DNA of 64,000 bases from Bacteroidota bacterium (GTDB taxonomy: Bacteria; Bacteroidota; Bacteroidia; Bacteroidales; FEN-979), in assembly GCA_037128705.1 (NCBI GenBank), contig JBAXVX010000009.1, positions 42,620 to 106,619 on the forward strand. The letters are read 5' to 3'. The notes beneath the pieces are model-generated. The model was not told where the DNA came from, made no database searches, and saw nothing but the letters and a program-made list of their open reading frames with translations. A program made the translations under genes and the position numbers. The first letter of the stretch is position 1. Every line of letters starts with the position of its first letter. Shown here in pieces: positions 25,557-26,266 of the stretch.

Positions 25557-26151
25557 CCGCTTTTTCGATATACTTATTTCTTTTGCCGGGCTGATTGTCC
25601 TCTTGCCCTTGTTTATAGTTATCGGGCTGGTTATTGCGATTGATTCGAGGGGTGGCGTATTCTTTTGCCAGACGAGGGTTGGGAAAAACGGAAGAGATTT
25701 CAGGCTGGTCAAATTCCGGACGATGACTGCCGGTGCGGAAAAGCTGGGAGGGCTCACCGTCGGAACCCGCGACAACCGTGTGACTGGTGTCGGATATTGT
25801 CTCCGGAAATTCAAATTTGATGAATTGCCCCAACTGCTCAACGTATTGGCGGGGGATATGAGCCTGGTTGGCCCGCGGCCTGAAATCCGCATGTATGTTG
25901 ACAGGTATACCCCCGAACAGCGCATTGTCCTGACGGTCAAACCAGGGATCACCGATTATGCATCCATCGAATTCATGGATGAAAATGAATTGCTCGGACG
26001 ATCCGCTGATCCTGAAAAGAGCTATATCGAAGAGGTGATGCCTGCGAAAATCAAGTACAATTTACGGTACATTGAGAACCAGAGCCTGCGGGAGTATTTC
26101 AGGATCCTGGCGCTAACCTTTAAAGGACTGTTTAAAAAACGTGACACGTGA
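25552..26151 (+). CDS. Undecaprenyl-phosphate sugar phosphotransferase (PglC/WbaP C-terminal family)
   Basis: ATG 25552 gives MIRFFDILISFAGLIVLLPLF, followed by FRLVKFRTM and DELPQLLNVLAGDMSLVGPRP. The tail KKRDT and the TGA stop are encoded by heptads. Confidence 0.85.
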   Translation: MIRFFDILISFAGLIVLLPLFIVIGLVIAIDSRGGVFFCQTRVGKNGRDFRLVKFRTMTAGAEKLGGLTVGTRDNRVTGVGYCLRKFKFDELPQLLNVLAGDMSLVGPRPEIRMYVDRYTPEQRIVLTVKPGITDYASIEFMDENELLGRSADPEKSYIEEVMPAKIKYNLRYIENQSLREYFRILALTFKGLFKKRDT

Positions 26152-26266
26152 CGCGTGACGCGTGACGGAAAAAACGTGACACGTGACGCGTGACGCGTGA
26201 CGGAAAAAAACGTGACACGTGACGCGTGACGGAAAAAAACGTGACACGTGACGCGTGACGCGTGAC
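26134..26266 (+). repeat. Higher-order tandem array: four units of A6-7 + ACGTGAC ACGTGAC GCGTGAC (GCGTGAC) GG
   Basis: Direct reading. Units start at about 26134, 26169, 26204 and 26233; the third lacks one GCGTGAC. The array fills the gap between two convergent stops at 26151 and 26271. Confidence 0.95.

Follow-up and report, generated by a model that had tools for sequence, protein, structure and literature searches.

A four-unit array of A-run and heptanucleotide modules between convergent genes of a Bacteroidota bacterium, probably a compound simple-sequence repeat

The 64,000-nucleotide stretch of contig JBAXVX010000009.1 (assembly GCA_037128705.1) that was analysed here, referred to as the window, carries a tandem array at positions 26134-26266, between the convergent genes for a sugar transferase and for a secreted nuclease-like protein. 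Judged from its sequence, the array is a minisatellite whose 29-35-nt unit consists of an A-run and a heptanucleotide microsatellite. The explanation favoured here, with a probability of about 0.62, is that it represents a hypervariable compound simple-sequence repeat (SSR), driven by slippage or template switching and of the heptanucleotide kind known as short tandemly repeated repetitive (STRR) sequences or long simple-sequence repeats (LSSRs). It is one locus of a genome-wide, multi-phylum family of heptad repeats whose class has already been described (PMC4679880, PMC4692102), and its novelty is therefore below that implied by the original prediction, which was made from the letters of this DNA alone.

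Anatomy and variation of the array

The original prediction had described the space between the two stop codons as four tandem copies of one module, with a 7-bp period nested in a longer one and with one GCGTGAC lost from the third copy, and this description holds in all its parts. Direct reading of positions 25800-26600 and Tandem Repeats Finder (TRF), which was run for periodicity, agree on four head-to-tail units in the convergent gap with lengths of 35, 35, 29 and 34 nt (Table 1). The units follow the formula A6-7 + CGTGAC ACGTGAC GCGTGAC (GCGTGAC) + GG, with boundaries taken from the positions of CGTGAC, and the 29-nt unit 3 has three heptads. Unit 1 is directly preceded by GGACTGTTT, the four letters AAAT are all that lies between unit 4 and the minus-strand stop codon, and the 119 nt between the stops (26152-26270) are filled by the array. 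For 26134-26266 TRF gives a period of 35 with 3.9 copies and a score of 210, offers 29 as an alternative period and finds a period of 7 (17.9 copies) nested inside. A three-heptad 20-mer, with one mismatch allowed, matches the window 16 times as compared to 0.00 times expected from 100 dinucleotide-preserving shuffles, which excludes a chance origin of the heptad runs.

A palindrome of 6 bp and one further base make up each heptad (CACGTG+A, ACGCGT+G). Runs of heptads are therefore self-complementary with one mismatch per seven bases. Moreover, heptads in sense orientation offer TGA in all three frames within three repeats, and the antisense reading (GTCACGN) is free of stop codons in all frames. 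A 51-aa TTG-started open reading frame (ORF) on the minus strand (26113-26268) was considered as a hidden gene and rejected, as it spans the array and merely reflects the openness of antisense heptads; gene callers may annotate ORFs of this type as hypothetical proteins. Scans of the window for structured RNAs (Rfam, all families, gathering threshold) and for tRNAs (ARAGORN) were empty.

How does the array differ between strains and species? Eight contigs of the same species (L001-L008), 99.5-100% identical to the window, were found via the exact nuclease-like protein in ENA, JGI, metagenome-assembled genomes (MAGs) of NCBI and Logan, the sources being anoxic freshwater metagenomes. Three independent assemblies among them (L002, L003, L005) have a four-unit array identical to that of the window, set in unique flanks. 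L001 has exactly one 35-nt unit fewer, unit 1 or unit 2 being absent, and represents a 3-unit allele; the contig of L004 ends inside the array and shows a different unit order, and L006-L008 break in the first unit. Four independent short-read assemblies (L004, L006, L007, L008) end within the array, at about 26218-26243 of the window, and such repeats fragment the MAGs of this lineage.

Relatives were found in metagenomes and by protein search, and gene order is kept in them. The sister species L118, with a nuclease-like protein 94% identical to that of the window, has 2 units in the gap. At 92% identity L119, L152 and L153 have 1 unit of three heptads and a 12-nt gap, and at 69% identity both states are found within one species, 2 units in L156 and L157 and 1 unit in L158 and L159. 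Position and orientation of the module are constant across the orthologous gaps examined. The transferase stop is a heptad TGA at every ortholog examined and is preceded by the tail KKRD[T/A] throughout, except in L152, where an indel has led to RKNVTRDA. Homologs of the nuclease-like protein with 53% identity or less have lost synteny and hence are uninformative on the array. The changes observed take place on three nested scales, A6 versus A7, plus or minus 7 nt, and plus or minus 35 nt.

These comparisons bear on the earlier proposal that gain and loss involve the whole module and not the heptad alone. As counted in assemblies, unit number is 4 versus 3 within the species and 2, 1 and 1-2 in the relatives; the difference in L001 amounts to precisely one module; and the orthologous loci, which could have held unrelated sequence, hold the same module in the same place and orientation. 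Further evidence for whole-module copying is seen in two other gaps of the window. An exact copy of unit 4 (A7 + 27 nt) lies at 25473-25507, 650 bp from the main array, where it is inserted in a related heptad array upstream of the transferase; the sister species L118 is without it. In addition, a block at 21357-21420 supplies the stop of a Rieske oxygenase gene and adds VTRDT to its protein. This block of about 66 nt is absent in L152 and L156, where the Rieske gene and its neighbour overlap at their stops, and it is a de novo array gain relative to both. Taken together the sequences support the proposal.

Heptad arrays elsewhere in the window and in other genomes

Altogether 14 arrays with a period of 7 or 8 were found in the 64 kb, every one intergenic or overlapping gene ends. 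Runs of (A/G)CGTGAC occur in six gaps, and other 7-8-nt arrays, including GAATGAC, GATTTAC, GGGTAACA and TTGTCACC, in eight more. The arrays favour gene 3' ends: five of the 6 convergent gaps contain one, as compared to 8 of 30 co-directional and 1 of 7 divergent gaps (convergent versus divergent, Fisher p=0.03). As a sense repeat stops translation in any frame, three window arrays provide the gene before them with its stop codon. A replication-direction cause of array orientation is unlikely, as the window arrays are oriented like their neighbouring genes (minus at 31714-31750 and plus at the other loci) and not along one direction of the chromosome. The run behind the carboxylase stop at 17564 is kept in all three species with 3-5 heptads and appears to be an old locus.

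A second compound type of array is found on the plus strand at 46468-46554 and 62217-62392, 16 kb apart. Both loci have in common the order (GATTTAC)n, then (CATTACTY)n, then (TTGTYACC)n, and the latter closes with 13 octamers (62286-62392, TRF score 172). The shared internal order, like the A-then-G order of the heptads, suggests that whole composite blocks were copied. Furthermore, the 16-mer AAAAAATTCGTCATTC is present at 21397-21412 and 42372-42387, in both cases in a convergent gap, where it immediately follows the stop of the minus-strand gene; in the sense of that gene it reads GAATGACGAA, then T6.

The sugar transferase is adjoined by heptad arrays on both sides. Its Pfam Bac_transf match stops at F201 of a 206-aa ORF, and the remaining tail KKRDT is encoded in unit 1 by AAA AAA CGT GAC ACG TGA, with the TGA at 26149-26151, exactly as predicted for tail and stop. 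On the other side, the gap that leads up to the transferase ATG is taken up by a heptad array in all relatives, with differing motifs (CAATTAC, CAATGAC, GAGTGAC/GAATTAC or the CGTGAC module); the position of this array is conserved, its sequence is not. Within one species, (CAATGAC)n directly upstream of the start codon has n=4 in L158, 10 in L156 and L159 and 12 in L157, and the upstream array of L001 is two heptads shorter than that of the window. The prediction had named the gene on the far side of the main array a nuclease. It is indeed the convergent neighbour, but the label is weak: only the C-terminal sorting domain of the type IX secretion system (T9SS) scores above threshold in Pfam, S1-P1_nuclease stays below cut-off (E=0.0033), and PF02265 is carried by some of the homologs. 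The host is placed in the Bacteroidota because of this sorting domain and because homologs are named Bacteroidales. Elsewhere in the relatives, aldehyde:ferredoxin oxidoreductase is split into two ORFs of 310 and 408 aa in L153 (JGI contig, 16845-19003) and intact with 719 aa in L152 (ENA contig of the same species, 16845-19004), the difference being either a frameshift or a sequencing error.

Table 1. Positions in the window of the array units, the predicted hairpins, the flanking genes and further heptad arrays
Feature	Positions	Strand	Remarks
Unit 1: A6 CGTGAC ACGTGAC GCGTGAC GCGTGAC GG	26134-26168	+	35 nt; TRF and sequence reading
Unit 2: exact repeat of unit 1	26169-26203	+	35 nt
Unit 3: A7, three heptads, GG	26204-26232	+	29 nt; one GCGTGAC fewer
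Unit 4: A7, four heptads	26233-26266	+	34 nt; no GG
Predicted hairpin 1: unit 4 with unit 3	26204-26261	-	6-bp blocks ACGCGU/ACGUGU with C.C mismatches between; loop U7C; then U6-7
Predicted hairpin 2: unit 2 with unit 1	26134-26202	-	then U6
Sugar transferase, Bac_transf	25552-26151	+	Pfam E=5e-55; 199 aa as called in other assemblies
Secreted 371-aa protein, T9SS C-terminal sorting domain	26271-27386	-	Pfam; convergent with the transferase
A7 + CGTGAC ACGTGAC GCGTGAC GCGTGAC	25473-25507	+	exact ectopic copy of unit 4
GAATGAC x3, GAGTGAC, GAATTAC x2	25508-25551	+	reaches the transferase ATG
ACGTGAC x3	17564-17584	+	directly after TAA of the PYC_OADA carboxylase gene
A5, five CGTGAC heptads, GA6T, inverted GAATGA heptads	21357-21420	+	between Rieske oxygenase and aldehyde dehydrogenase genes
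A6 CGTGAC TCGGGAC GCGTGAC GCGTGAC A8	31714-31750	-	overlaps the stop of the minus-strand gene 31729-34914
GGTGAC ACGTGAC GCGTGAC GCGTGAC	58223-58249	+	divergent gap

Heptad runs are also found well beyond this lineage. The DNA pattern CGTGACACGTGACGCGTGAC was scanned in one genome per species and matches at least 109 loci in these species-representative genomes, about one match being estimated by chance in 596 Gb. Among the matches listed are many MAGs of Bacteroidales, Prolixibacteraceae, Draconibacterium and Saprospiraceae, and also MAGs labelled Vulcanimicrobiota, Verrucomicrobiae, Chlorobiaceae, Nitrospirae, Synergistia, Acidobacteria and Obscuribacterales. These multi-phylum labels may result from independent origin, horizontal spread or binning contamination. 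Higher-order arrays of spacer and heptads, with 2-7 units, are present in at least 10 of the listed loci, examples being L079 from Chlorobiaceae (period 31, 7.2 copies), L062 (period 37, 4.5 copies), L080, L067, L115 and L013. Across L009-L117 the heptad runs frequently have purine-rich spacers at their sides, for example GCGAGGAAT or GGAGGAAT; A-rich sequence lies on both sides of the heptad blocks, and 74% of the flanks have A at position -2. In L013, a Bacteroidetes MAG from Lac Pavin, four forward modules of A5 and heptads follow a stop codon and are succeeded by two reverse modules of heptads and T6-7 (6473-6660), giving a large inverted repeat between A- and T-runs that resembles a bidirectional terminator. 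Among 2.9 million viral contigs the exact 20-mer had 0 matches and its R-degenerate form 9, and no link to phages was seen.

Origin of the array and competing explanations

How could such an array arise and persist? If it is a heptanucleotide SSR driven by slippage or template switching, its seed would be the A-run and first heptads, which end the sugar-transferase ORF and are conserved there. This seed could then have been multiplied in replication or repair by slipped-strand mispairing or template switching, anchored on A-runs and TGAC heptads, and the palindromic hexamers might aid slippage by making single strands foldable in many registers. In line with this, folding of the single-stranded DNA gives z of about -4 for both strands with many competing registers, which is the condition needed for slipped-strand mispairing. 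The arrays may persist because growth into or beside a stop would cost few residues when TGA is present in all sense frames, and a gene 3' end would be a cheap site with no promoter to disrupt. Once two or more modules are present, minus-strand hairpins followed by U6-7 would form, and the four units might act as two tandem intrinsic terminators.

Several findings weigh against this explanation or against parts of it. The copy-number differences come from short-read metagenome assemblies, which are prone to collapsing repeats. A terminator role is not required at this junction, since sister species have convergent gene ends that are 12 nt apart or overlap, and no hairpin. The preference of arrays for one strand also exceeds what the proposed persistence accounts for. 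Orientation was counted for 110 array clusters that were ascertained by the three-heptad pattern, placed with a crude ORF-based gene call and include orthologous, non-independent loci; with these limits, of the arrays no more than 20 nt from a stop codon 34 are in sense and 9 in antisense orientation (p=1.7e-4), and the ratio is 23 to 9 (p=0.02) for genes that keep their own stop. The bias thus remains where array and stop codon are not in contact, and a purely translational filter is insufficient. Arrays inside ORFs are all antisense with none near the ORF end, and co-directional gaps overall, with 28 sense and 21 antisense arrays, show no strong strand bias. Furthermore, the non-ascertained GTGAC run lengths in L009-L117 and the window (60 runs of two heptads, 23 of three, 22 of four and 1 of five) have a shoulder at four and a sharp drop thereafter and do not follow the monotonic, geometric decay of stepwise slippage. 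The shoulder hints at a length constraint or at whole-module copying; the GGGAATC repeats of Xanthomonas have a mode of four units as well (PMC4692102). Moreover, heptad motif and A-then-G order are kept at the same loci despite a nuclease-like protein identity of 69%, a retention above what neutral intergenic DNA usually shows, and purine-rich spacers recur in different phyla.

Alternatively, the array may have been selected because it terminates strongly, in tandem and possibly in both directions, and so keeps the two convergent genes insulated from each other, with module duplication fixed for termination. For plus-strand RNA one long hairpin is predicted (-65 kcal/mol, z = -6.1), and for minus-strand RNA two interrupted hairpins of roughly 19 bp (-54.6 kcal/mol, z = -6.6), each directly before U6-7. 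According to this prediction it is only on the minus strand that the array has the form of an intrinsic terminator, with a GC-rich hairpin and a U-tract behind a stop codon. On the favoured explanation too, the two structures may terminate the nuclease-like gene, a role that is put forward tentatively and at rather less than even odds. A simple scan of the minus strand yields 5 sites that look like terminators, as compared to 1.4 expected, no other terminator is seen in the whole gap, convergent gaps are rich in arrays, and the head-to-head modules of L013 form a perfect inverted repeat. The plus-strand hairpins, however, are followed by GGAAAAAA and no U, the last unit alone having a weak AAAUUUAUUUU tail. 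The structure is also not conserved at orthologous loci, where single modules (L119, L158) are on a par with shuffled sequence in folding (z = 0.2) and two-unit orthologs weakly better (z = -1.3 to -1.9). In addition, the spacers GGAGGAAT and GGGGAAAT of other genomes give no U-tract on either strand, and the heptads of L028, L087 and L116 lie upstream of a separate canonical terminator. Because the convergent junctions of sister species leave no room for a terminator, single modules do not fold, the plus direction is without a U-tract and spacers elsewhere do not yield one, the predicted terminator looks like a by-product of expansion and not like the reason for the array, and selection for termination is an unlikely origin. 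Less likely again is that the module is a discrete cassette of the 3' untranslated region, made up of a purine- or A-rich spacer and 3-4 GTGAC heptads, which would sit in sense orientation at stops in several phyla. It might serve as a multivalent site for a putative RNA- or DNA-binding factor and/or as a back-stop closing three frames, or as a terminator once duplicated, and would spread as a unit between gene ends by template switching anchored on A-runs and TGAC. Such a cassette would fit the conservation of the GTGAC core next to 2-3 variable linker bases (AC, GC, GG, AG, GA; octamers GGTGACAA), the preferred run length of 3-4 heptads, three being the minimum for TGA in every frame, the purine-rich flanks, the sense bias beside stops, the recurrence of one architecture in several phyla and the exact module copies at new sites. 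It fits poorly with the rapid turnover of heptads at one position among close relatives (ahead of the transferase these are CAATTAC, GAGTGAC and CGTGAC) and with the near balance of strands in co-directional gaps; the orientation count carries the limits given above, and there is no known candidate for the binding protein, nor a gene that co-occurs with the arrays. If true, heptamer SSRs with built-in stops, perhaps TAACTGA too, would be gene-end punctuation and not slippage debris.

The position around a gene for initiation of surface polysaccharide raises the question whether copy number confers graded or phase-variable expression on the sugar transferase, making the arrays a contingency locus. 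Heptanucleotide repeats upstream of hmw1A/hmw2A of Haemophilus influenzae modulate expression (PMC2651432). Here, the within-species polymorphism right upstream of the start (n=4, 10, 12, and two heptads fewer in L001) and the downstream alleles with 3 or 4 units could point the same way. The main array is situated 3' of the ORF, however, where changes in unit number alter a tail of 5-8 aa only. Since similar arrays flank housekeeping genes (carboxylase subunit, Rieske oxygenase, aldehyde dehydrogenase, SAICAR synthetase), there is no specific tie to surface variation, and a contingency function is very improbable. With hardly any probability left to it, the array could finally be an assembly artefact or belong to another repeat class, such as clustered regularly interspaced short palindromic repeats (CRISPR), miniature inverted-repeat transposable elements (MITEs) or a cluster of repetitive extragenic palindromes (REPs) in bacterial interspersed mosaic elements (BIMEs). 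Contigs of four assemblies do end in the array, its 29-35-nt unit is within the CRISPR and REP range, and its units are quasi-palindromic. An artefact was rejected because the window and three independent assemblies share the identical array with unique flanks. The other classes were rejected on anatomy: there are no unique spacers, the would-be spacer being GG + A6-7, units are otherwise identical and the Rfam scan was empty (CRISPR); all units are direct, whereas the REPs of BIMEs alternate; and neither terminal inverted repeats nor target-site duplications are present (MITE).

On the favoured explanation, that of an SSR amplified by slippage or template switching, the series of 1, 2, 3 and 4 modules together with the ectopic copy and the de novo gain would document a microsatellite becoming a minisatellite, whose growth captures gene stop codons and would create hairpin and U-tract structures de novo. 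The spread of the heptads, their preference for runs of four and the sense bias at stops lead to testable hypotheses on gene-end signals. Moreover, the arrays, which break short-read assemblies, are potential strain-typing markers for uncultured freshwater Bacteroidales.

Comparison with known repeat systems

Intergenic heptamer repeats were first recognised in bacteria around 1990, and in many genomes they are over-represented. The heptamers of the cyanobacterial STRR sequences were reportedly described by Mazel and colleagues in 1990, and the families STRR1-3 of heterocystous cyanobacteria have the consensus CCCCAGT, TTGGTCA or CAACAGT. The present array, with units (A/G)CGTGAC, GAATGAC, GATTTAC and TTGTCACC and a host in the Bacteroidota, is not a member of these families and is STRR-like in its working. 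REPs and BIMEs of Enterobacteria and pseudomonads are imperfect palindromes of alternating orientation that are mobilised by REP-associated tyrosine transposases (RAYTs). They share with the present array hairpin-capable extragenic units of about 35 nt that stand in tandem after stops, often between convergent genes, at many loci. In contrast to them, the repeats described here are direct microsatellite repeats, and no link to RAYTs was seen, RAYT genes not having been searched for. Intrinsic terminators are resembled by the minus-strand unit pairs, for which an interrupted, GC-rich stem with U6-7 directly behind it is predicted, a few nt past the stop. The predicted stem differs from theirs in that it arises from self-complementary direct repeats, has no U-tract in the plus direction and is absent in single-unit orthologs.

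The array has the features of an intergenic heptanucleotide SSR, namely 7-nt head-to-tail repeats, occurrence at many intergenic loci and copy-number polymorphism at the locus, and would by these be assigned to that class. Heptanucleotide repeats are the most abundant category of long SSRs in most prokaryotic genomes examined (Mrazek et al., 2007, cited in PMC4679880). Within this category, TAACTGA repeats of Beggiatoaceae, Cyanobacteria and five Bacteroidetes show mixed heptamers per gap, 7-nt indels between strains and occurrence at contig ends (PMC4679880). LSSRs, STRR sequences and TAACTGA repeats are like the present arrays in having 7-nt head-to-tail units, typically in 2-6 copies, at many intergenic loci of scattered phyla, often beside start or stop codons, with mixed heptamers, 7-nt steps between strains and contig breaks. 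What differs is the (A/G)CGTGAC heptad itself, a palindrome plus one base for which a literature search of heptad strings returned unrelated primers only, and the tandem amplification, in steps of 29-35 nt, of a heptad block bracketed by A-runs together with its spacer. In addition, the present arrays favour the 3' ends of genes and the sense orientation, whereas the TAACTGA repeats of the Beggiatoaceae genome are mostly found just upstream of start codons.

In Xanthomonas, GGGAATC is repeated at about 180 loci, mostly in four units, in gaps between the same genes in related species and with variable length and sequence, for which polymerase slippage was proposed (PMC4692102). These repeats and the GGGGA(C/T)T repeats of Nostoc (PMC4692102) are, like the present ones, lineage-specific heptamer families with conserved positions and length variation. 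They are G-rich and form G-quadruplexes, whereas the present heptads cannot and would form hairpins via their palindromic hexamers, and no higher-order, spacer-containing units are described for them (PMC4692102). The SSRs of Haemophilus influenzae hmw1A/hmw2A are 7-nt repeats of strain-dependent copy number that lie between regulatory signals and a surface-related gene (PMC2651432, citing Dawid et al., 1999), and in this they are similar to the array upstream of the sugar transferase; the main array described here, in contrast, lies downstream of the ORF, and the same repeats flank housekeeping genes. Nothing in these comparisons shows a new kind of system. The class itself is known, and what is particular to the present locus is the heptad, its palindromic build, the amplification of whole blocks, the series of 1, 2, 3 and 4 modules and the capture of the stop codon.

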